From the sequence record OQ561750: a DNA stretch of 64,000 bases; one strand, given 5' to 3'. Position 1 is the first letter of the stretch. Each line of letters begins with the position of its first letter. Under the pieces are notes generated by a model, which was not told the origin of the DNA, searched no databases, and worked only from the letters and a program-made list of their open reading frames with translations. The DNA is from Escherichia phage LHE83. Positions 6,570 to 61,810 of this stretch are shown piece by piece. Position numbers and translations under genes: made by a program.

Positions 6570-7993
6570 AAACTATTTTGGCTCAACTGCTAGGCAATAG
6601 TGATTATTTCACTAAGGTCTGGCCTTATATGAATGATTCTTATTTTGACCAGGGTCCTGCAAAGACCCTTTTCAAAGAAATTAAAAAACACGTCAATGAA
6701 TATAATGCAGTGCCTTCTAAGAACGCGCTGAGCATTGCATTAGATAACAGCACGCTTTCAGAAGTTGAACACCAAGGCGCTAAAGAGCTTTTAAGTTCAC
6801 TGAATGCCGGACCTGAAGACCAAGAATGGTTGGTTAAAGAGACGGAGAAATACGTTCAGAAAGCAGCGATGTATAATGCAACTTCAAAAATCATTGAAAT
6901 CCAAACTAATGCAGACCTTCCGGTTGAGCAACAAAATAGAAAACTTCCAGGTATTGGTGCTATTCCAGATATCATGCGTGATGCATTATCGATTTGTTTC
7001 GATTCTGAATTAGGTCATGACTGGATGGATGACTATGAAGAACGTTTCAAAAGTTATTCTGATAAAGCACGTAAGGTTCCGTTCCGTCTTAATATTCTGA
7101 ATAAGATTACCAAAGGTGGTGCCGAGTTTGGTACTGAAAACGTATTGTTGGCAGGAACAAACGTAGGTAAGTCTCTTGGTCTTTGTTCATTGGCTGCTGA
7201 TTATCTTCAATCTGGTTACGATGTTCTTTATATCTCCATGGAGATGGCAGAGGAAGTATGTGCTAAGCGTATCGATGCCAACCTTCTGGATGTGTCACTG
7301 GATGATATCGATGACGGCCATGTCTCTTGGCCTGAATATAAAGCTAAGATGGATAAATGGCGTTCAACTGCTACTTTAGGTCGTTTAAAGATTAAACAGT
7401 ACCCTACCGGTGGCGCTAATGCCGATACATTCCGTGCATTATTAAACGAATACAAACTCAAACAAAACTTTGTTCCACAGGTCGTTATCGTCGACTACTT
7501 GGCCATCTGTGCATCATCTCGTACGAAAGTTTTCTCTGAAAACAGTTACGGATTGATTAAGATGGTAGCCGAAGAACTACGTGGACTTGCAGTAGAAAAG
7601 AAATTATTGTTGTGGACTGCAGCCCAGACTACTCGTGGTGCGAACGTTGCAGCCGAAATCGATATGGCTGATATTGCTGAATCCTTTGGTATTGCACATA
7701 CTGCAGACTTCATGTTAGGTGTGGTCGAGACAGAAGAGTTTGCTCAGATGGGTATGCAGATGGTTAAGCAGCTTAAATCTCGTTATGGTGATAAGAGCTA
7801 CTACAACAAATTTAAGATTGGTGTTAAGAAAGGAAATCAACGTTGGTACGAAGTTGAAGACGATTCCAACCCAGGCCAGGTGAACACCGTTCGTGAGGCT
7901 ACAGGTGAGATGAATCGTCAAGCCGAGGTCAATCGACAGACGCTTGTTAATAGAAGTGATTTGGACGATTTAGCAGCATCTATCAAATTTTAA
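6554..7993 (+). CDS. 41: replicative DNA helicase gp41 (DnaB-like)
   Basis: 479 aa; Walker A AGTNVGKS; strong match to T4 gp41 by recollection. Confidence 0.95.
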   Translation: MVEVVETILAQLLGNSDYFTKVWPYMNDSYFDQGPAKTLFKEIKKHVNEYNAVPSKNALSIALDNSTLSEVEHQGAKELLSSLNAGPEDQEWLVKETEKYVQKAAMYNATSKIIEIQTNADLPVEQQNRKLPGIGAIPDIMRDALSICFDSELGHDWMDDYEERFKSYSDKARKVPFRLNILNKITKGGAEFGTENVLLAGTNVGKSLGLCSLAADYLQSGYDVLYISMEMAEEVCAKRIDANLLDVSLDDIDDGHVSWPEYKAKMDKWRSTATLGRLKIKQYPTGGANADTFRALLNEYKLKQNFVPQVVIVDYLAICASSRTKVFSENSYGLIKMVAEELRGLAVEKKLLLWTAAQTTRGANVAAEIDMADIAESFGIAHTADFMLGVVETEEFAQMGMQMVKQLKSRYGDKSYYNKFKIGVKKGNQRWYEVEDDSNPGQVNTVREATGEMNRQAEVNRQTLVNRSDLDDLAASIKF

Positions 7994-8014
7994 GGAGCTT
8001 CGGCTCCTTTTTTG
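7994..8014 (+). terminator. intrinsic terminator after gene 41 (GGAGC-UUCG-GCUCC + U-run)
   Basis: Perfect stem with UUCG tetraloop followed by TTTTTTG. Confidence 0.8.
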
Positions 8015-8597: not shown

Positions 8598-8657
8598 CAG
8601 TTTACATCAAAGGGATAATGCAGTATATTATCCCTATCAACTACCGAGGAGAACATT

Positions 8658-12103: not shown

Positions 12104-12109
12104 TTATAA

Positions 12110-12131
12110 GGAACCTTCGGGTTCCTTTTTT
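12110..12131 (+). terminator. intrinsic terminator (GGAACC-UUCG-GGUUCC + U6)
   Basis: Perfect hairpin with UUCG loop and TTTTTT; identical copy at 32079. Confidence 0.85.
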
Positions 12132-19600: not shown

Positions 19601-19629
19601 GTTTACTTTATCGAGAGCCATGTTATAAT
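19601..19629 (+). promoter_or_regulatory. early promoter (GTTTAC, 17 bp, TGtTATAAT) embedded in 9-bp inverted repeat
   Basis: Arms GAGAGCCAT 19613-19621 / ATGGCTCTC 19628-19636. Confidence 0.7.
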
Positions 19630-19671
19630 GGCTCTCATGGAGAATAAACTTATTAACCAAGAGAGAAAATT

Positions 19672-20223: not shown

Positions 20224-20295
20224 AGTTTAAAAACAGTATACACTATGGTAGGGTAGTGATACTATTACCCTATCAACAAATGAGAGGAAAATAAA

Positions 20296-21095: not shown

Positions 21096-21356
21096 ATGAA
21101 ATATATTAATCGTTCTATTGCAGCTCTCGTATTAGCAGTTTCTTTGGTTGGATGTACTGATGCCGATAATGCTACCCGTGTATTGGATGCAAATGGCTAC
21201 GAACAAATCCAAATCACAGGATACAACCTATTTGGCTGCTCTGAAGATGATTTCCAACGTACAGGCTTTATTGCTGTGGGTCCGACAGGTAAAAGGGTTG
21301 AAGGAACTGTTTGTTCTGGATTATTCTTTAAAAAGTCGACCATTCGATTTGATTAA
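21096..21356 (+). CDS. predicted lipoprotein
   Basis: Lipobox LVGC. Confidence 0.55.
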   Translation: MKYINRSIAALVLAVSLVGCTDADNATRVLDANGYEQIQITGYNLFGCSEDDFQRTGFIAVGPTGKRVEGTVCSGLFFKKSTIRFD

Positions 21357-21372
21357 GGGCTTCGGCCCTTTT
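21357..21372 (+). terminator. intrinsic terminator (GGGC-UUCG-GCCC + U4)
   Basis: Hairpin plus T-run directly after stop. Confidence 0.7.
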
Positions 21373-23446: not shown

Positions 23447-23449
23447 TAA

Positions 23450-23467
23450 GGGCCTTCGGGCCCTTTT
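23450..23467 (+). terminator. intrinsic terminator (GGGCC-UUCG-GGCCC + U4)
   Basis: Hairpin + T-run. Confidence 0.7.
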
Positions 23468-27239: not shown

Positions 27240-27255
27240 GGAGGCTTCGGCCTCC
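27240..27255 (+). other. GGAGGC-UUCG-GCCUCC hairpin without U-run after rIIB
   Basis: Perfect 6-bp stem with UUCG loop. Confidence 0.6.
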
Positions 27256-27466: not shown

Positions 27467-27766
27467 ATGATTAATTACCTGAATGTCGGTGAACGTGATA
27501 TCAAGATTTCCAATTTGCGTGGGTTCCATCGTGCAGGTACTGTTTATTGTGCTAAGCTCGTTAAACACCCTGGTGATGTTCATTACGCTTTTCTAGAATG
27601 CGATGAGGTGGTTGAAGGCGAGTTTCCTTTAGTAGATTCTGATACTTTAGAACCCGACGACCGAATTTATTACGGTGAACTTCATATTCGAGGCATTTAT
27701 GGTGAAGACGAACCCGGGACTACTCCGATTGGCAGCGATGCCGACATTTACCCTGAAGACATCTGA
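27467..27766 (+). CDS. hypothetical protein
   Basis: ATG immediately after upstream stop. Confidence 0.5.
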   Translation: MINYLNVGERDIKISNLRGFHRAGTVYCAKLVKHPGDVHYAFLECDEVVEGEFPLVDSDTLEPDDRIYYGELHIRGIYGEDEPGTTPIGSDADIYPEDI

Positions 27767-29684: not shown

Positions 29685-29712
29685 TTTACAACCTCGAGAA
29701 TCGTGTTATAAT
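29684..29712 (+). promoter_or_regulatory. early promoter (GTTTAC, 17 bp, TGtTATAAT) with flanking inverted repeat CGAGAA/TTCTCG
   Basis: Hexamers and spacing. Confidence 0.7.
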
Positions 29713-29761
29713 GGTTCTCGTTGACTGGATAACAAAACATTAATCTACTGAGGAAATTGAT

Positions 29762-30211
29762 ATGAATACTTATATGACTCGCCGTAACGTTCTGTCTGCT
29801 GGTGCTACTACTGTTGCTTATGTTAAGAACGGTGAATACCAAAATGGTAAACCTTCTAAAGAAATCTCTGCTCAGCCAGGCTTCTACTTCTTTGTTAAAG
29901 GTGGTGCTGATTCTCGTGTCGTAGCGGCTCGTTTTTATGTCGGTAATCAACGTTCGGCCCAAGGGCTCGACGGTATCGTGGCTAACATTCGTAAGAAACG
30001 TTCTCAATCAGCTCGCACTATGGCAGTGAACGGTGTTGTGTATGAAGTTCTTTATGTACCGGCTTCTAAGATGAAACCCCTGACTACAGGTTTTGGTAAG
30101 GGTCAAATTGCAATGGCTTTCACTCGTAATCATAGTTCCGACCTCCAGACACTGGAAGAAATGAACCGTATGTTGGCTGATAACTTTAAATTCATCCTGC
30201 AGGCTTACTAA
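29762..30211 (+). CDS. ndd: nucleoid disruption protein Ndd-like
   Basis: Size/position and C-terminus ...[17 protein letters not shown] resembling T4 Ndd by recollection. Confidence 0.6.
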
Positions 30212-30288
30212 TGAGTAATTTCCATAACGAGCATGTGATGCAGTTCTATCGTAACAATCTTAAAACTAAAGGCGTCTTCGGACGCTAA
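30211..30288 (+). CDS. stp: Stp peptide (25 aa)
   Basis: [25 protein letters not shown] matches T4 Stp by recollection; TAATG overlap with ndd. Confidence 0.8.
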
Positions 30289-31977: not shown

Positions 31978-32078
31978 GCCTTGGAGTCGAGTTCTTGTTA
32001 CTCTGTATCTTTGCTGTTATTCTGGGCCTGGCGACAGGCTTAGCTATAGGTTTAATAGCAGCTCACTTTAAAAAGTAA
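31974..32078 (+). CDS. small membrane peptide (34 aa)
   Basis: SD GGAGG; ATGA overlap with gene 52 stop; followed directly by terminator. Confidence 0.5.
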   Translation: MSLGVEFLLLCIFAVILGLATGLAIGLIAAHFKK

Positions 32079-32100
32079 GGAACCTTCGGGTTCCTTTTTT
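32079..32100 (+). terminator. intrinsic terminator (GGAACC-UUCG-GGUUCC + U6)
   Basis: Identical to the terminator at 12110. Confidence 0.85.
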
Positions 32101-36332: not shown

Positions 36333-36343
36333 AAAAACCTCCA

Positions 36344-36357
36344 GGGCCCGAAGGCCC
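36344..36357 (-). other. GGGCC-UUCG-GGCCC hairpin between genes 37 and 38, just 5' of the gene 38 SD
   Basis: Perfect stem/tetraloop on minus strand followed by UGGAGGUUUUUAUG. Confidence 0.6.
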
Positions 36358-36361
36358 TTTC

Positions 36362-40339: not shown

Positions 40340-40371
40340 CGTAGAAAACGAAAAAGGAACCCGAAGGTTCC
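40340..40371 (-). terminator. intrinsic terminator after gene 35 (GGAACC-UUCG-GGUUCC + U-rich) on minus strand
   Basis: Same hairpin sequence as + strand terminators, in reverse orientation, abutting gp35 stop. Confidence 0.65.
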
Positions 40372-41493
40372 TTAATATTTTTCTCTAAATTCAGCGACCC
40401 AAACCTGACCAGGTTTAGTGCCTGTTTTATCATATAGCTGGGCTATGGTAGTACCCATATTTTTAGTTTCCGTACCAAAGTTCATACGAATACCGTTAAC
40501 ACCAAATTCAGCAGGTTTTGGCCGAGGTTCTGATTCAGATATCTCACCGAACATAACATTTCGAACTCCACCTTGTCCGGCCGAAGCTGTTTTTCTGGCA
40601 TAAAGGGTAAAGTCTGTAGTACCTTCAGGAACCATTACTACCCGTTCAAATGTCATCCATGCACCAGCAGGAACGTTGGAAGGAACGTCCATATTAACTG
40701 TCCCGGTTAAAGCGCCTGAGGCATTAAAAAATCTAACAGACATCTGAGAGGTCCCGACGTCTTTTAAAGCTTGGTCACACATTAATTGAAACTTAAGGTA
40801 AAAGAATTCACCTGGTTTCATATTATAATCTGTTAATGGGGTAGTAGGAGATTCGGTAGGAAATCGCTTAATTTCATCTCCATCATTGCTTAGATAAGTG
40901 CTTTCATCTTCAACAATTCTGACAGGATATCCTGTACCACCGACGTCGCTGATATCATCAAATACCACTTCTAACGGAGTAGAAACATCTTCGACAAATA
41001 CCCCATCATTATAAAGCACATGTTCCATTACTATGGTATTCCTTCCTGAAACATAAAATGCAGAATAAGACGGCTCGAAGCGGTCTATTAGCCATTTAGA
41101 TGGAAATGCAGTACTTCCTGCTGCACGGAACCAATCGATAAGTTTTTGTGAAGCATTTAATCTACCAGAAGATACTAAACAAACTATTCTATTAGCCGGT
41201 ATAGAATTTATATATGTTATAAAAGCTTCAGAGATAACATCAAAGTCTTTAGTAAAACTATAAGTTTTGTTAGCAACGATTTTAGGTTCGGCGCTAACAT
41301 CGATTTCTATAAGGTTTAATCCATTTTGAAAATTCTGGGAACCGAAGTTCCCATCTTGAAATTTAACATATGCTTTTGTGGTAGACTTAGTACAACTACC
41401 CGCTATACTAAGTTTATACCTCACAGCATTGTTTTCAGATAATGTAGGAACCTGGACATATCCTTGTCCAAATTCTGCCATAAATCTTTCCAT
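40372..41493 (-). CDS. 35: long tail fibre hinge gp35
   Basis: 373 aa; position. Confidence 0.8.
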   Translation of the reverse strand: MERFMAEFGQGYVQVPTLSENNAVRYKLSIAGSCTKSTTKAYVKFQDGNFGSQNFQNGLNLIEIDVSAEPKIVANKTYSFTKDFDVISEAFITYINSIPANRIVCLVSSGRLNASQKLIDWFRAAGSTAFPSKWLIDRFEPSYSAFYVSGRNTIVMEHVLYNDGVFVEDVSTPLEVVFDDISDVGGTGYPVRIVEDESTYLSNDGDEIKRFPTESPTTPLTDYNMKPGEFFYLKFQLMCDQALKDVGTSQMSVRFFNASGALTGTVNMDVPSNVPAGAWMTFERVVMVPEGTTDFTLYARKTASAGQGGVRNVMFGEISESEPRPKPAEFGVNGIRMNFGTETKNMGTTIAQLYDKTGTKPGQVWVAEFREKY

Positions 41494-47172: not shown

Positions 47173-47822
47173 TTAAGATTCGCATGCCACCAAACAATAA
47201 CCGTATGGTGAATGGTAAGAGCGTATATTCACTATACTTAATGCTCAAACATCACTTCAATGCCAAATACGACGTTATAAAATATAACTGGGTCATGCGA
47301 ATCTCTGATACGGCTTATCAAAAACGTCGTGACAAATATTTCTTTGAGAAATTGAGTGATAAATACACTTTGAAAGAGCTTGCTCTTATCTTCATGAGTA
47401 ACTTGGTGGCTAACCAAGATGCATGGATTGGCGATATCAGTGATGCTGACGCCTTAGTCTTTTACCGAGAATATATCGGTAGACTTAAAAGAATAAAACA
47501 AGTTTTTGAGGATGATATCAAAAACATTTATTATTTTAGTAAGAAAGTGGAAGTTCAAGCGCTTTCTGAAATTTTTGATTATAATAAAAAAGTTAACTCG
47601 AGCTATATTTTTAAGCTCCTTCAATCGAATGTTATTTCATTCGAAACGTTTATTTTGCTTGATTCATTTATGGATATAATTGATAAACATGATGAACAGA
47701 CCAACGATTTAGTGTGGTCTAAGTATTCGACTAAATTAAATGCTTATAAGAAAATTCTTATAATTGATAATTTAGAAGCTCGTAAATTGTTCATCGAAAC
47801 AATTAAGGGTTGCAAATTTTGA
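47169..47822 (+). CDS. 59: helicase loader gp59
   Basis: 217 aa; MIKIRMP...KYDVIKYNW...LVANQDAWIGDISDADALVFYREYIGRLK matches T4 gp59. Confidence 0.9.
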   Translation: MIKIRMPPNNNRMVNGKSVYSLYLMLKHHFNAKYDVIKYNWVMRISDTAYQKRRDKYFFEKLSDKYTLKELALIFMSNLVANQDAWIGDISDADALVFYREYIGRLKRIKQVFEDDIKNIYYFSKKVEVQALSEIFDYNKKVNSSYIFKLLQSNVISFETFILLDSFMDIIDKHDEQTNDLVWSKYSTKLNAYKKILIIDNLEARKLFIETIKGCKF

Positions 47823-47836
47823 ATATAGTTTATAAA

Positions 47837-48454
47837 ATGACTTGGATTAATCGTCAGGCTAATAATATTAAGCCGTTTTCGTACATAGGTTCTAAAACTA
47901 ATTGTACTTTTGAAAATGGCGTGATTATTGACTGTAAAGGTAAAGAGTATTGGACCTCTTGCGAGCAATCAAGATTTAAAGAGGCCATCGAAGAAGAAAA
48001 ACCTATTGTTGAAATTTTGGCTATAACGCCATTTGATATTGTTATTAATATTGAACGTTCAGAACAATTGGAAGTTCAAGCTAGAGATAATGATGATTAT
48101 TTTAATTTGGTTTATGCCGGTGGCGGATTTGGAGTCTTTGGATGCACTCACCCAGCCAAACGTCCTGAAGTTAGAGCCCATATGAAAGCTGCTAACTATA
48201 TGAATCAACCCGATTACCGTCCTTGGAAAACTTCTAGAGCAAACCCTTTAGATTGGATGCTTAGTGATATTGCTTATACTAATTATTGTATAATTAATTC
48301 TAGTGGAAGAGCTTGTGGATGGAGGCGTCTCATTAACTCTGGTATAAATGTTAGTGAAACTACATCAAAGAGTATGATTAAACAATTTAATGAGGGTTGG
48401 GTTCCTAATGATGACCCTGAATTCATTAAGTTAAAAATGCTTTATTCGAAGTGA
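47837..48454 (+). CDS. hypothetical protein in AT-rich insert at the segG position (possible mobile/homing-endonuclease-related gene)
   Basis: Lies between 59 and 32 where T4 has segG; AT-rich; YIGSKT-like motif; no SD. Confidence 0.4.
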   Translation: MTWINRQANNIKPFSYIGSKTNCTFENGVIIDCKGKEYWTSCEQSRFKEAIEEEKPIVEILAITPFDIVINIERSEQLEVQARDNDDYFNLVYAGGGFGVFGCTHPAKRPEVRAHMKAANYMNQPDYRPWKTSRANPLDWMLSDIAYTNYCIINSSGRACGWRRLINSGINVSETTSKSMIKQFNEGWVPNDDPEFIKLKMLYSK

Positions 48455-49480: not shown

Positions 49481-49505
49481 GGGAAGACTTCGGTCTTCCC
49501 TTTTT
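49481..49505 (+). terminator. intrinsic terminator after gene 32 (GGGAAGAC-UUCG-GUCUUCCC + U5)
   Basis: 8-bp stem, UUCG loop, T-run. Confidence 0.85.
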
Positions 49506-50288: not shown

Positions 50289-50516
50289 ATGGCTAAGGTT
50301 AATATTGATATCGTTGATTTTGAATACACTTACGAAGTTATCCGTAATCGTTATCCTTCTTTAGTTATGACCCATATTAAAGATACCCAATTCTGTAGTA
50401 TGCAAATTGAAGTCCAAGGTCCTCTTGAAGACCTTACCCGCTTTATGGCTGACGAGTATTGTGACGGTATGCACCCGGAAGACGCTAAATTTTATATGGG
50501 CTTGATTCAAGCTTAG
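50289..50516 (+). CDS. hypothetical protein
   Basis: SD GAGGA. Confidence 0.5.
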
Positions 50517-50575
50517 TGTACAAACCAACGGGAACATATTATCATGTTCCCTCAATTGAATATGAGGAAATTAAA

Positions 50576-50953
50576 ATGATGGAAACTGGTAAATTTTACG
50601 TATTAGACCCTGCCGCTAAAAAACAATTCATCGCGGGTAGTCCTGATGATAATTATAATTCGTGCATAGTCAAGTTGATGGAACAGCATGGCAATTCCTT
50701 CAAAGTCCTGGATATGTGTTATATTGAAGGCAGTTATTTTGTTGAAAAAGTTGAAATGAAAGATGGTACCATCCTGAATAGTATGGGCGGTGCTGATGAG
50801 TACTTTGAACTCGGTGAATGGGAATTCTGTCACTTCCTGGAAGTTGATGGCGATGTTCCTGATGTTGATACCCAAACCATTCATGTACAAGTCAATCACA
50901 AAAATGCCGCTGAAGTCATTGCCCTGATTAAAGCAACTTTTGATATTCAGTAA
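50576..50953 (+). CDS. hypothetical protein, paralog of 49574-49963
   Basis: GKFYVL...YFEL...TQTIHV...LIKATFDIQ; SD GAGGA. Confidence 0.55.
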   Translation: MMETGKFYVLDPAAKKQFIAGSPDDNYNSCIVKLMEQHGNSFKVLDMCYIEGSYFVEKVEMKDGTILNSMGGADEYFELGEWEFCHFLEVDGDVPDVDTQTIHVQVNHKNAAEVIALIKATFDIQ

Positions 50954-51029
50954 AAAGTAGTATACACCCAAATGGGGCTATGATATAATGGTCCCATACT
51001 GAGATAACAACTAAACACCGGAGAATAAA

Positions 51030-52712
<1,683 letters not shown>

Positions 52713-52840
52713 AAATTCAAATAATCTGTACTCTGTTTTTGGTTATTATGGTCGGACTGAATTTCATTCTATAAATATCAGTCCATGCTTAACAGGTTCT
52801 ATGATAGAATAATTGTAGAACCTAACACATTGAGGAAATT

Positions 52841-55096
52841 ATGCAAGTACAAAAAAGTAGTGGTGTATCCCAAGATTTTGACGCACAAAAAATTATTAAA
52901 GTTCTGACTTGGGGCTGTGAAGGAACCCAAATCGACCCCTATGAATTATACGAAGAAATCAAATCTCACCTTCGTGATGGTATGACTACCAAAGATATCC
53001 AGAATCTGACTGTTAAGGTCGCAGCCAACCTTATTTCGGTTGAAGAACCTGACTATCAGTATGTTGCTGCAAAGCAATTGATGTTTGCACTGCGTAAAGA
53101 AGTTTACGGCCAGTTCGAACCACGTAGCTTTATCGACCATATTTCCTATTGTGTTAACGAAGGTAAATATGACCCTGAATTGTTGTCTCGATATTCTGCA
53201 GAAGAAATTACTTTCTTAGAATCTCATATAAAGCATGAACGCGATTTCGAATTGACTTATGCTGGTGCGATGCAGCTTAAAGAGAAATATCTGGTTAAAG
53301 ATAAAACAACCGGTAAAATCTACGAAACCCCTCAGTTCGCTATCATGTGTATTGGTATGGCCTTACACCAAGACGAGCCAGGTAATCGTTTAGCACATAT
53401 TATTCGTTTTTATGATGCTGTAAGTACCCGTCAGGTTTCATTACCAACTCCTATTATGGCTGGAGCACGTACACCAACCCGTCAATTTAGTTCTTGTGTG
53501 GTTATTGAAGCAGGCGACTCACTGAAATCTATTAACAAAACTGCTAACTCAATAATTGAATACATTTCTAAACGTGCCGGTATTGGTATCAACGTTGGTA
53601 TGATTCGTGCTGAAGGTTCTCGTATTGGCATGGGCGAAGTCAAGCATACCGGTGTTATTCCATTCTGGAAACATTTCCAGACTGCTGTTAAATCATGTTC
53701 ACAAGGTGGAATCCGTGGCGGCGCTGCTACTGCTTATTATCCTATTTGGCATTTGGAAGTTGAAAATCTGCTCGTTCTGAAAAACAACAAAGGTGTCGAT
53801 GAGAACCGTATTCGCCATATGGACTACGGAATCCAGATGAACGACCTTATGATGGAACGTTTCGGTAAAAATGATTACATCACGTTGTTTAGTCCTCATG
53901 AAATGGGTGGTGAGCTTTACTATTCTTATTTCGAAGACCAAGACCGTTTCCGTGAATTGTATGAAGCCGCAGAAAAAGACCCTAGTATTCGTAAGAAACG
54001 TATTAAGGCACGCGACCTTTTCGAATTGTTCATGACTGAACGTTCAGGCACTGCACGAATTTATCCTCAGTTCGTTGATAACACTAACAACTTCACACCA
54101 TTTATTCGTGAAAAAGCTCCTATTCGTCAGAGCAACTTGTGTTGTGAAATTGCTATCCCGACTACTGACGTGAATAGTCCTGACGCTGAAATTGGTTTGT
54201 GTACGTTGTCTGCATTCGTATTGGATAACTTCGATTGGCAGGACCAAGACAAAATCAACGAGCTGGCTGAAGTACAAGTACGTGCACTTGATAACCTGTT
54301 GGACTATCAAGATTATCCTGTTCCTGAAGCTCTGAAGGCTAAGAAACGTCGTAACCTGGGTGTTGGTGTTACGAACTACGCCGCTTGGTTAGCAAGCAAC
54401 TTTGCTTCTTATGAAGACGCTAACGATTTAACTCATGAATTGTTTGAGAGATTACAATATGGACTTATCCGAGCATCCATCAAGCTGGCCGAAGAAAAAG
54501 GACATTGCGAGTATTATTCAGACACTAAATGGTCTCGAGGCGAATTACCTATCGACTGGTACAATAAAAAGATTGACCAAATCGCAGCCCCTAACTATGT
54601 TTGTGACTGGACGTCGTTGCGGGAAGACTTGGCTAAACATGGCATCCGTAATAGCACATTATCAGCACTTATGCCGTGTGAATCAAGCAGCCAGGTTTCC
54701 AACTCTACAAACGGTATCGAACCTCCACGTGGTCCGGTAAGTATTAAAGAATCTAAAGAAGGTAACTTCCGTCAGGTAGTTCCTAATGTAGAACATAACC
54801 AAGGACTCTACGATTACGCTTGGAGCCTCGCTAAGAAAGGTAATAAACCTTATCTTACCCAAGTGGCAATAGCGTTGAAATGGGTGTGTCAATCGGCATC
54901 AGCTAATACATATTATGACCCACAGATTTTTCCAAAAGGAAAAGTTCCGATGTCGGTAATGCTTGACGACCTGCTGTATTTCTGGTACTACGGTGGTAAG
55001 AACCTTTACTATCATAATACCCGTGATGGCTCTGGTACTGATGACTATGAAATCGAAACTCCTAAAGCCGATGATTGTGCAGCTTGTAAATTGTAA
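52841..55096 (+). CDS. nrdA: ribonucleoside-diphosphate reductase alpha subunit
   Basis: 751 aa; ATP-cone, NLCCEI active site. Confidence 0.95.
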   Translation: MQVQKSSGVSQDFDAQKIIKVLTWGCEGTQIDPYELYEEIKSHLRDGMTTKDIQNLTVKVAANLISVEEPDYQYVAAKQLMFALRKEVYGQFEPRSFIDHISYCVNEGKYDPELLSRYSAEEITFLESHIKHERDFELTYAGAMQLKEKYLVKDKTTGKIYETPQFAIMCIGMALHQDEPGNRLAHIIRFYDAVSTRQVSLPTPIMAGARTPTRQFSSCVVIEAGDSLKSINKTANSIIEYISKRAGIGINVGMIRAEGSRIGMGEVKHTGVIPFWKHFQTAVKSCSQGGIRGGAATAYYPIWHLEVENLLVLKNNKGVDENRIRHMDYGIQMNDLMMERFGKNDYITLFSPHEMGGELYYSYFEDQDRFRELYEAAEKDPSIRKKRIKARDLFELFMTERSGTARIYPQFVDNTNNFTPFIREKAPIRQSNLCCEIAIPTTDVNSPDAEIGLCTLSAFVLDNFDWQDQDKINELAEVQVRALDNLLDYQDYPVPEALKAKKRRNLGVGVTNYAAWLASNFASYEDANDLTHELFERLQYGLIRASIKLAEEKGHCEYYSDTKWSRGELPIDWYNKKIDQIAAPNYVCDWTSLREDLAKHGIRNSTLSALMPCESSSQVSNSTNGIEPPRGPVSIKESKEGNFRQVVPNVEHNQGLYDYAWSLAKKGNKPYLTQVAIALKWVCQSASANTYYDPQIFPKGKVPMSVMLDDLLYFWYYGGKNLYYHNTRDGSGTDDYEIETPKADDCAACKL

Positions 55097-55737
55097 TGAA
55101 TTATCAAAAAATCTATAACAACCTAATTTCCCGAGCTCAGGCTCGGGAACCTTTATCTGAATATAAAGAGAATCATCACATAATCCCTAGATGTTTAGGT
55201 GGTTCTGATGATAAGGAAAATCTGGTTTATCTTACTGGGCGCGAGCACTTTATTGCACACTGGCTTCTTACAAAGTTTAATGATTATCCAGGCCTCAACC
55301 AAGCCTTTGGCATGATGTGTCTCACTAATAAAAATAGGCAATATAATGTTTCTTCTAGGTTATACGAAATAGGTAAAAAGCTTTTATCGGAAGCCATGAC
55401 TGGTAAAGAAATGGCTGAAGAGACTAAGAAGAAAATTAGTGAGACTATGAAAGGAAGGGAATTTACCGAAGAGCATTTGGCTCGCATGAGAAAGCCTAAA
55501 ACCGAAGAAGCTAAAAAGAATATAGCTTCTGCCAAAGTTGGTGCGCTTAATCCTATGTATGGTACAATTTCTCCTACAAGAGATGTCCCTCATACTAAAG
55601 AGACATGTGATTTAATTTCTTTGAAGACCAAAGAGAGAACAGACTATCCACCTTGCCCACATTGTGGCAAGAAAGTTAACAAAGGTAATGCTTTAAGATG
55701 GCATTACGATAAATGCAAATTTAAGGATTCTAAATGA
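55096..55737 (+). CDS. mobE: HNH homing endonuclease (MobE-like) with NUMOD-type repeats
   Basis: HHIIPRCLGGSDDKENLVYLTGREHFIAH HNH motif; repeated ...KKNIASAKVG / ETKKKISETMKG; between nrdA and nrdB as T4 mobE. Confidence 0.7.
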   Translation: MNYQKIYNNLISRAQAREPLSEYKENHHIIPRCLGGSDDKENLVYLTGREHFIAHWLLTKFNDYPGLNQAFGMMCLTNKNRQYNVSSRLYEIGKKLLSEAMTGKEMAEETKKKISETMKGREFTEEHLARMRKPKTEEAKKNIASAKVGALNPMYGTISPTRDVPHTKETCDLISLKTKERTDYPPCPHCGKKVNKGNALRWHYDKCKFKDSK

Positions 55738-56912
55738 GTACAGTTTTTAATACCGAACAGGTTGATGTTTTATCAGAACCTATGTTCTTTGGTTCAGGAT
55801 TAGGATTGGCCCGTTATGACATCCAGCGCCATAAAGTATTTGAAGAACTCTGTGAAAAGCAACTCGGATTTTTTTGGAGACCCGAGGAAGTTAACTTGAT
55901 GATGGACGGTGCTCAATTTAATAAGCTTCCACAATTCCAACAAAATATTTTTACCAATAACCTGAAGTATCAATCACTTCTGGATAGTATCCAAGGACGT
56001 GCTCCTTCTGCTGCACTTCAAGCCTTGATTTCAGACCCTAGCCTTGATACATGGGTGGCTACATGGACCTTTAGTGAGACTATTCACTCTCGTTCATATA
56101 CCCATATCATGCGTAACCTCTATACAGACCCGTCAAAGGTATTTGATGAAATTCTGTTAGATGACGCTATTATGAAACGTGCTGAATCTATTGGTCGTTA
56201 TTACGACGACGTTATTGAGAAAACTCGCTATTGGCAGAATGCTAAAGCTGATATCGAATACCAAAAAGAAATTAATGCAGACGAAGACGATATTGAAGAT
56301 GCTATTGAGCATGAGATGTATTGGAAGCGTGAGCTAATGAAATCCCTTTACCTTTGCCTTCATGTAATCAACGCATTGGAAGCTATTCGTTTTTATGTAT
56401 CTTTCGCATGCACCTTTAACTTCCATAAAAACATGGAAATCATGGAAGGTAATGCTAAGATTATGAAGTTCATTGCACGTGATGAACAGCTTCACCTTAA
56501 GGGTACCCAGTACATTATTCGTCAACTTCAACTTGGTACTGATGGTGATGAATGGGTTAAAATTGCTCAAGAGTGTGAACAAGAAGCAGTTGATATTTTC
56601 ATGGAAGTTAACCGTCAAGAAAAAGAATGGGCAGCTCACCTGTTCAAAGATGGTACTTGCCCTGGATTAAATACTCAGAACATGGGTGCTTTTGTCGATT
56701 ACCTGACAGTTTCTCGTATGAAGCAATGTGGCTTACCGTGTCCTATTACCGATGCTCCTGCCCGCCATCCTTATCCTTGGATTCGCGAATACCTGAACTC
56801 TGATGCTGTACAGGCTGCTCCTCAGGAAGTGGAAATCAGTTCTTACCTTGTAGCACAAATTGATAACGATGTCGATGAAAAAGTAATGGCATCGTACAAG
56901 AAATATTTTTAA
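55734..56912 (+). CDS. nrdB: ribonucleoside-diphosphate reductase beta subunit (intron-less)
   Basis: 392 aa; di-iron ligands, continuous ORF. Confidence 0.9.
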   Translation: MSTVFNTEQVDVLSEPMFFGSGLGLARYDIQRHKVFEELCEKQLGFFWRPEEVNLMMDGAQFNKLPQFQQNIFTNNLKYQSLLDSIQGRAPSAALQALISDPSLDTWVATWTFSETIHSRSYTHIMRNLYTDPSKVFDEILLDDAIMKRAESIGRYYDDVIEKTRYWQNAKADIEYQKEINADEDDIEDAIEHEMYWKRELMKSLYLCLHVINALEAIRFYVSFACTFNFHKNMEIMEGNAKIMKFIARDEQLHLKGTQYIIRQLQLGTDGDEWVKIAQECEQEAVDIFMEVNRQEKEWAAHLFKDGTCPGLNTQNMGAFVDYLTVSRMKQCGLPCPITDAPARHPYPWIREYLNSDAVQAAPQEVEISSYLVAQIDNDVDEKVMASYKKYF

Positions 56913-56917
56913 GGAAT

Positions 56918-56931
56918 GGGGCTTCGGCCCC
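56918..56931 (+). other. GGGGC-UUCG-GCCCC hairpin between the SD (AAGGA) and start codon of denA
   Basis: Perfect stem/tetraloop 9 nt upstream of ATG at 56940. Confidence 0.6.
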
Positions 56932-56939
56932 TTATTGCT

Positions 56940-57353
56940 ATGAAAGAAATCGCAGACGAATTTAGCTTTATCAAGTACGTCACCCTAGAACTCCAAGATG
57001 ACGCCAGCATTGCTCCACTCACAGTACCAAATAAACAAAATGTCATATATGCTATAGCGGTTGATGATATACTAGTCTACATCGGGAAGACTAAAAATCT
57101 TCGTAAGCGCATCAACTACTACCGAACCGCTATTAATCGTAAGGACCAAACGTCAGATTCGACCAAGTCCATTCTGATTCATGAAGCATTAATGGCAGGT
57201 AAAAAGGTAGAGTTCTATGCACGGCAGTGCTTTAATCTGTCGATGACTAACGAACTTGGAACTATGTCAGTTGAGACCATGTCTCTTGAAGAGCCAATGT
57301 TCATAAAGAAATTTAATCCACCTTGGAATACCCAACATAGGATAAAGCAATGA
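56940..57353 (+). CDS. denA: endonuclease II (GIY-YIG family)
   Basis: MKEIADEFSFIKY...VIYAIAVDDILVYIGKTKNLRKRINYYR matches T4 EndoII. Confidence 0.85.
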   Translation: MKEIADEFSFIKYVTLELQDDASIAPLTVPNKQNVIYAIAVDDILVYIGKTKNLRKRINYYRTAINRKDQTSDSTKSILIHEALMAGKKVEFYARQCFNLSMTNELGTMSVETMSLEEPMFIKKFNPPWNTQHRIKQ

Positions 57354-59789: not shown

Positions 59790-59852
59790 TTTACAAACTC
59801 TTGGGAGCAGAGTATAATGCTCCTACGGATTATAAAAATTGAGGAAATTATT

Positions 59853-61748: not shown

Positions 61749-61810
61749 GTGTTTACACTATGGTAGGACTGTGGTATAGTAGTCCTACCGAAACAAATGA
61801 GGAAATCGAA

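Follow-up and report, generated by a model that had tools for sequence, protein, structure and literature searches.

In bacteriophage T4 the ribosome-binding sites (RBSs) of genes 38 and 25 are split: a hairpin between the Shine-Dalgarno (SD) sequence and the start codon shortens the distance between them from 22 to 5 nt (gene 38) or from 27 to 11 nt (gene 25), and mutations that destabilise it lower translation (PMC3014915; also PMC7297116). Reviews of these sites (PMC3014915, PMC7297116) trace the original work to Gold 1988 for gene 38, and to Nivinskas et al. 1999 and Malys & Nivinskas 2009 for gene 25. Extra-stable C(UUCG)G hairpins in T4 intercistronic regions, for which PMC8948821 cites Tuerk et al. 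1988 (PNAS 85:1364), their use as terminators, and the cassettes of T4-like phages that join a stem-loop to an early promoter (PeSL cassettes; Arbiol et al. 2010, PMC2839356; Comeau et al. 2014, PMC4122927) are likewise already known. Here we examine a stretch of 64,000 nt from Escherichia phage LHE83 (sequence record OQ561750; the whole stretch is called the window below), and in particular the junction between its genes nrdB and denA, the latter encoding endonuclease II (EndoII). We consider it probable that stable C(UUCG)G hairpins punctuate the mRNAs of this phage, acting at the RNA level, and that the RBS of denA is built around one of them. Judged by sequence comparison, the denA site appears to be a further, undescribed member of the split RBS class, with unusually good comparative support.

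The nrdB-denA junction and its relatives

The junction reads UAUUUU-UAAGGA-AU-GGGGC-UUCG-GCCCC-UUAUUGCU-AUG on the plus strand. Within UAAGGA (56910-56915), the nrdB stop codon UAA (56910-56912) overlaps the proposed distal SD of denA, AAGGA (56911-56915). The GGGGC-UUCG-GCCCC hairpin (56918-56931) lies between this SD and the AUG, and is followed by a U-rich, single-stranded spacer, UUAUUGCU (56932-56939), that contains no SD. The denA gene (56940-57353, plus strand; start codon 56940-56942) encodes a protein of 137 aa with a Pfam GIY-YIG domain. A first-pass annotation of this DNA had placed the SD about 25 nt from the ATG with the hairpin between them, and this description holds: the last base of the SD is 24 nt from the A of the AUG along the linear sequence, and about 10 nt (2 + 8 single-stranded) from it when the stem is folded. 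The nrdB stop and denA start codons are 27 nt apart with the hairpin between them. The folding-energy calculation suggested in the same annotation gave a predicted -9.6 kcal/mol for the hairpin, with pair probabilities of 0.97-1.0.

Pairing of the distal SD with the anti-SD of 16S rRNA is predicted at -6.1 kcal/mol, 23-24 nt from the AUG, against about -1.7 to -2.1 kcal/mol for the best proximal pairing, which is located inside the hairpin. Of the 100 gene starts in the window, only that of denA has a strong distal SD, a weak proximal one and a stable hairpin in the gap, and no other split-SD candidate was found in this set. ORF271 (open reading frame 271) at 27467 does have a distal SD; it was rejected as a UAAAAUG coupling junction with a weak proximal GGUGAG. 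Directly upstream of denA there is no promoter-like site, so the gene would be read from nrdB transcripts.

The same arrangement is widespread among T4-like phages. Two IMG/VR scans with DenA returned 49 loci which, together with T4, provided 27 distinct nrdB-denA junction sequences, and 26 of these share one layout: stop codon, AAGG(A/AG), hairpin, 3-9 mostly U-rich bases and AUG. The stems vary (GGGGC, AGGGC, GGGAGAC, GGGAC, GGGCC, GAGGGC and others), as do the loops, with UUCG in most, GCAA or GUAA in T4 and phages close to it, and UUAG, UUGA or UUUG elsewhere. Since the loop is variable, what has been kept is the stable hairpin itself. Two further loci (L083/L084; DenA identity 53%), in which a GAAA-loop terminator precedes a separate SD, were set aside as uninformative on this junction because the gene upstream of denA there is not nrdB.

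We measured stem covariation and SD conservation on an alignment of 21 distinct junction sequences. Across the stem, 95% of alignment cells are paired and four of the six pairs change on both sides; 24 cells are changed on both sides, compared with 7.1 in shuffles, and none of 500 shuffles reached the observed score. When the pairing partner is shifted sideways as a control, the covariation signal collapses. Both G residues of AAGG are at least 90% conserved in these junctions and the two preceding A residues are invariant; the 3' spacer is not conserved. Furthermore, the AAGG core is kept despite shifts in its offset from the stop codon, as in UAAGGA, UAAAGGA, UAAAAGGU and UAGGAG.

Predicted anti-SD pairing follows the same pattern throughout the 26 junctions. 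The distal site averages -7.4 kcal/mol (range -4.4 to -9.3), and the best pairing within 12 nt of the AUG averages -1.9 kcal/mol (-1.7 to -3.7) and falls inside the hairpin. The distance from SD to AUG in relatives is 21-28 nt in linear terms and 4-10 nt once the stem is subtracted. The denA site therefore has an SD more than about 13 nt from the AUG, no usable proximal SD, a stem-loop that cuts the gap into the range of about 5-11 nt, and compensatory changes in its relatives, as is expected of a split RBS.

C(UUCG)G hairpins across the window

The window comes from a Dhakavirus, a T4-like phage of the JS98/WG01 type: the 2-kb region around denA is 99% identical to Escherichia phage WG01 of this genus, and roughly 680 T4-like genomes in GenBank match the region. 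A gene map of the window was built by mapping 107 WG01 proteins onto it. The plus strand carries early and middle genes, including, in order, imm, gene 41, soc, rIIA, rIIB, motA, asiA, rnh, gene 32, nrdA, nrdB, denA and gene 31; the minus strand carries t and the tail-fibre genes 38-34 at about 34.8-45.6 kb. Intergenic spacers make up 7.2% of the window.

CTTCGG occurs 45 times in the window, compared with 19.5 +/- 4.5 in dinucleotide shuffles, none of which (0/100) reached 45. Perfect Watson-Crick stems of at least 5 bp on a TTCG loop number 12, compared with 0.56 on average and at most 4 in 100 such shuffles, and TTCG is by far the commonest 4-nt hairpin loop, no other exceeding four occurrences. 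All 12 hairpins close the loop with a C-G pair on the transcribed strand, and all 12 place UUCG, rather than its complement CGAA, on the mRNA-sense strand of the neighbouring genes, an orientation that argues for a role at the RNA level. Ten are intergenic; of the other two, one falls in the final codons of stp and one within gene 35. The 25 stable sense-strand intergenic hairpins of the window (predicted folding energy of -8 kcal/mol or lower) include 11 of the C(UUCG)G type. An Rfam scan of the whole window found no family at its gathering score. The first-pass claim that CUUCGG hairpins recur throughout this DNA is therefore well founded: every site that it cited holds one, with coordinates falling 0-3 nt inside the full stems, and it overlooked only two, at 30271-30286 (plus strand, end of stp) and 41353-41336 (minus strand, inside gene 35). 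From their sequence context, seven of the 12 would be U-run terminators, three stand beside a normal SD, one lies between an SD and its AUG (denA) and one is inside gene 35.

Six of the terminator-type hairpins are on the plus strand: at 7992-8009 after gene 41, where the hairpin is joined to UUUUGUUUU and followed by an early promoter; at 12108-12127 after soc, 23448-23465 after ORF4 and 49481-49500 after gene 32, each also followed by a promoter; at 21355-21370 after 39.1 and before gene 39; and at 32077-32096 after the motA.1-like ORF261 and before motA, again with a promoter. The seventh, at 40354-40373 on the minus (late) strand, follows gene 35. All seven begin 0-17 nt past a stop codon and combine a G+C-rich stem with an immediate U-tract, and in five an early-promoter consensus, GTTTAC-N17-TAnnAT, lies 8-23 nt downstream. 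Six of the seven are headed by UAAGG, whose AAGG pairs with CCUU ahead of the U-run, and there is a gap of 35-89 nt to the next AUG. In T4, too, terminators follow genes 32, 35 and motA.1, with other loops at two of these junctions and CUUCGG at that of gene 35; no T4 Term-seq paper was found in the literature searched. We infer that a U-run hairpin directly after a stop codon is an intrinsic terminator, and to this extent the sequence bears out the first-pass reading. Such a hairpin would usually be the stem-loop half of a PeSL-type cassette, ending one transcription unit and starting the next. The window promoters match the published PeSL early-promoter consensus of T4/PST, TTTACW-N17-TAYWAT (PMC4122927), and a stem-loop upstream of the -35 box, as found at these sites, is one of the placements described for PeSL cassettes (PMC2839356).

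The hairpins after soc and before motA had been noted as identical 22-mers, which is correct and understates the case, as a third exact copy is present on the minus strand. The 22-mer, AAGGAACCTTCGGGTTCCTTTT, lies at 12108-12129 and 32077-32098 (plus) and at 40352-40373 (minus), and three copies per genome are also found in Dhakavirus relatives. It additionally matches 81 IMG/VR stretches exactly, including dozens of unrelated contigs. This suggests repeated convergence on an efficient terminator, and a mobile cassette was accordingly rejected as the sole explanation of the three identical copies.

Separately from these hairpins, inverted repeats of 8-12 bp enclose the TATAAT-like -10 box of early or middle promoter-like sites on the plus strand, preceded by GTTTAC or a TGCTTA Mot box. 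They lie at 8611-8635, 19613-19636, 20246-20275, 29695-29720, 50972-50997, 52794-52823, 59802-59825 and 61761-61790, and their sequences fit the PeSL subclass in which the stem-loop covers the -10 box.

At three gene junctions, a C(UUCG)G hairpin lacking a U-run is followed within 0-2 nt by an SD at normal spacing. Downstream of rIIB, GGAGGC-UUCG-GCCUCC (27240-27255, plus strand), continuing into UAAGAGGAAAUUAUG, precedes a denB.1-like ORF whose SD, AAGAGGAAAUUAUG, lies 2 nt downstream with the spacing GAGG-5 nt-AUG; T4 has a UUCG mini-hairpin at the same junction. The rIIB stem pairs an SD-like GGAGG with an anti-SD-like CCUCC, and GCCUCCUAA resembles the 3' end of 16S rRNA, a likeness that is probably a coincidence of a purine-rich G+C stem. 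The second hairpin, GGCGUC-UUCG-GACGCU (30271-30286, plus strand), arises from the five terminal codons of stp (GVFGR, followed by the stop codon), so that the C-terminus of the peptide and the RNA structure share the same bases; the SD and AUG of ac follow. It is also present in T4 stp. The stp ORF itself (30211-30288, plus strand; 25 aa), a homologue of T4 stp, has no annotation in WG01. The third, AGGGCC-UUCG-GGCCCU (36343-36358, minus strand) followed by GGAGGUUUUUAUG, links the gene 37 stop to gene 38, which encodes a T2-type adhesin and has its SD directly 3' of the hairpin (GGAGG-5 nt-AUG); this hairpin is kept in 12 relatives with changes in stem and loop.

The first-pass annotation had grouped the hairpins at gene 38 and after rIIB with that of denA. 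They are indeed present near start codons, but the SD lies 3' of the hairpin at rIIB, stp/ac and 37/38, and these hairpins therefore bridge nothing. Most likely they would protect the 3' end of the upstream cistron, and they may also leave the adjoining SD unpaired. The remaining hairpin, UGGGAAC-UUCG-GUUCCCA (41336-41353, minus strand), is a perfect 7-bp stem without a strong U-run, located 140 nt into the coding sequence of gene 35. The equivalent stretch of T4 gene 35 yielded no TTCG-loop hairpin with a stem of 5 bp or more.

Three further plus-strand ORFs distinguish the window from WG01. An ORF of 213 aa at 55096-55737, in the nrdA-nrdB gap, is a mobE-like HNH/NUMOD3 homing endonuclease that WG01 does not have; 32 nt past its ATG lies a terminator-like hairpin (55128-55149) with a 9-bp stem and a 4-nt loop, which matches the internal terminator known in T4 mobE (PMC2790892). 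An ORF of about 205-214 aa at 47810-48454 occupies a gap of 736 bp between genes 59 and 32 that is absent in WG01; it has no Pfam match, and T4 carries the segG homing endonuclease at the same position. Finally, an extra ORF of 145 aa with a Pfam FRD2 domain, located at 50516-50953 between ORF239 and frd.1 and missing from WG01, is a second frd.2-like gene of the phage.

Routes to the denA start codon

With moderate confidence, we regard a split SD as the most likely way in which the denA AUG is found. UAAGGA, the one SD available, shares bases with the nrdB stop codon; 2 nt later comes the hairpin of 14 nt, and 8 nt past the hairpin the AUG. On a 30S subunit bound to this SD, the hairpin could then be looped out and the AUG come to lie in the P site, as is the case at genes 38 and 25 of T4. 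Ribosomes that terminate at the end of nrdB would have to melt the hairpin, and the fast-folding tetraloop would re-form the SD-AUG geometry after each passage. The first-pass proposal that the hairpin bridges SD and AUG is supported in this respect by the 26 junctions, their covariation and the layout of T4 gene 38. It stands less firmly as an exclusive account, as a role in termination or coupling also fits.

Several observations weigh against bridging. The effective spacing of about 10 nt, to which the width of the helix end must be added, is at the long end of the functional range. Linear distance is conserved as well as folded distance, and spacing alone therefore cannot separate the models. 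In a predicted fold of the naked RNA, the SD region forms weak pairs with the region of the spacer and AUG; the longer 'lower helix' of this fold is only 70% paired on the alignment, consists mostly of purine-U pairs without convincing covariation, and was considered unsupported. Additionally, we found no experimental data for this phage, nor for denA in any phage.

The main alternative, which we think possible but rather less likely, is termination-reinitiation, and this may operate alongside a split SD. In one relative (L029), neither hairpin nor SD is present and nrdB and denA overlap as AUGA, which implies that DenA can be made by coupling alone. On this view, the hairpin at the nrdB-denA junction would act chiefly as a leaky intrinsic terminator or a stabiliser of the nrdB mRNA 3' end, with DenA made at a low level by reinitiation after nrdB or by SD-independent initiation on the U-rich spacer, and with AAGGA a by-product of the usual 'UAAGG-stem' terminator design. 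The AUGA overlap of L029 is compatible with this, and the hairpin with UUAUUGCU does pass a lax terminator scan, if marginally (5 U in 8). In some relatives the hairpin is followed by U5-U6 (L008, L009 and T4, AUUUUAUU), so it may mainly attenuate transcription. The UAAGG that heads six of the seven genuine terminators of the window is, by the same token, not specific to an SD role. Moreover, the covarying 37/38 hairpin is kept whether the SD lies downstream, as in T2-type phages, or upstream, as in T4, which indicates that it has a role independent of bridging and that the RBS appears to have been fitted around it. These points are offset by the poor U-runs at several junctions (AUAAAGCU, GAUUUCAU, ACUUUAGU), and by an AAGG that is unpaired and conserved even where it has moved relative to the stop codon. 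Furthermore, the denA AUG lacks an SD of its own in every case and follows the stem by 3-9 nt, as against 35-89 nt to the next AUG at real terminators.

Leaky termination and a split RBS can both be true. We conclude that the denA hairpin would serve as gene-end punctuation, through 3'-end protection and perhaps leaky termination, and that the denA RBS has been built around it. A more speculative extension, which we put forward tentatively and think rather less likely than not, is that a dual-purpose module evolved from ordinary terminators. It would consist of a stop-overlapping SD, an ultra-stable tetraloop hairpin, 3-9 nt and an AUG, and would attenuate or stabilise the upstream transcript while handing a terminating, SD-held 30S subunit to the downstream AUG, brought within reach as the hairpin refolds. 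Such a module would have arisen independently at nrdB-denA, where it is present in nearly all T4-like phages sampled, and at 37-38, where it is confined to the T4 lineage, and at the former it would set a fixed, low ratio of DenA to NrdB.

It is very unlikely that denA instead starts at the in-frame ATG at 56916-56918 (plus strand), which abuts the SD, so that the protein would have 145 aa, the hairpin would be part of the coding region and no distant SD would exist. The reading frame is open from this codon, and it is the start used in the WG01 RefSeq record (NC_031928, 140886; 438 nt, 145 aa); T4 AF158101 (137951) likewise begins denA at a GTG in the same place, 3 nt past the nrdB stop codon (435 nt, 144 aa). 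However, the SD would then have a spacing of 0 nt, and the eight extra codons are just the hairpin, unconserved as protein. An in-frame upstream start exists only in the group of the window (ATG) and that of T4 (GTG), the other junctions having a different frame or no start codon, whereas the start at 56940 is conserved in all relatives. The N-terminus that begins there, MKEIADEF, aligns with MKEIATEY of the solved T4 EndoII structure (2wsh). On the limited distribution of the upstream start and this alignment we rejected the upstream ATG: the real denA start is almost certainly 56940, and denA appears to be annotated eight codons too long in the WG01 and T4 records. The probable reason is that an ATG or GTG sits next to the SD, with the split site as the likely cause of the mis-called start.

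Least credible of all, and close to negligible in our view, is the proposal that the hairpin repeats are chance occurrences or DNA-level palindromes serving as protein-binding or recombination sites, for although recombination in T4-like genomes has been proposed to take place at terminator/promoter cassettes (PMC2839356) and three copies in the window are identical, it is contradicted by the uniform sense orientation, the 20-fold enrichment over shuffles, stem changes that preserve pairing and not sequence, and the occurrence of the identical 22-mer in many viral contigs that are unrelated, as would be expected of convergence on a good terminator.

Comparison with known systems

Most of what is described here is textbook T4 biology, and the value of the present analysis is modest and practical. 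The denA site would provide a third and widely conserved example of a split RBS after T4 genes 38 and 25. No description of it was found in the literature searched, a search that did not extend to the originals Gold 1988, Tuerk 1988, Miller 2003 and Tseng 1990. Its 26 sequence variants, with their natural compensatory changes, amount to a ready mutant series for asking how a 30S subunit accommodates a hairpin between SD and AUG. The split site probably also explains a likely annotation error, as gene callers and the T4 GenBank record start denA inside the hairpin. In addition, the 37/38 junction, where one hairpin has its SD on either side depending on lineage, suggests that the hairpin comes first and that the RBS adapts to it.

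The window hairpins resemble the T4 C(UUCG)G hairpins, as these are presented in the literature citing Tuerk et al. 1988, in having a UUCG loop closed by a C-G pair, in lying between genes and in being abundant in T4-type phages; they also share the link to termination, to mRNA stability and to sites of translation initiation. They differ only in degree, UUCG being used here at some sites where T4 uses a different loop, namely at the terminators of gene 32 and motA.1 and at denA, whose T4 loop is GCAA. The PeSL cassettes are matched at five sites of the window by their full order of stop codon, stem-loop with U-run, TTTACW-N17-TAYWAT promoter, SD and next gene, with stems of the A2-4G3...C3T3-4 type; the denA, stp, rIIB and 37/38 hairpins lack a promoter and are hence not PeSLs. 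As in AUGA translational coupling, of which L029 is a true case, denA depends on the nrdB mRNA and its SD overlaps the nrdB stop codon, but its stop and start codons are 27 nt apart with a hairpin between them, and any coupling would require the 30S subunit to be retained on the SD.

The closest parallel remains the split RBSs of T4 genes 38 and 25. Like these, the denA site has its SD 21-28 nt upstream of the AUG and a stable hairpin that would restore a functional distance, and the structure is conserved among close T-even relatives. It differs in lying at the nrdB-denA junction, before an early and not a late gene, and in being known from sequence comparison where the T4 sites have mutational evidence. 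The likeness to gene 38 goes further, as there too the SD shares bases with the stop codon of the preceding gene (UAAGGAG) and a C(UUCG)G loop is used, although the effective spacing is 5 nt at gene 38 and about 10 nt at denA. The T4 37/38 junction, UAAGGAG-AGAGGGGC-UUCG-GCCCUUCU-AAAU-AUG, is the same module as that found at denA in the window.

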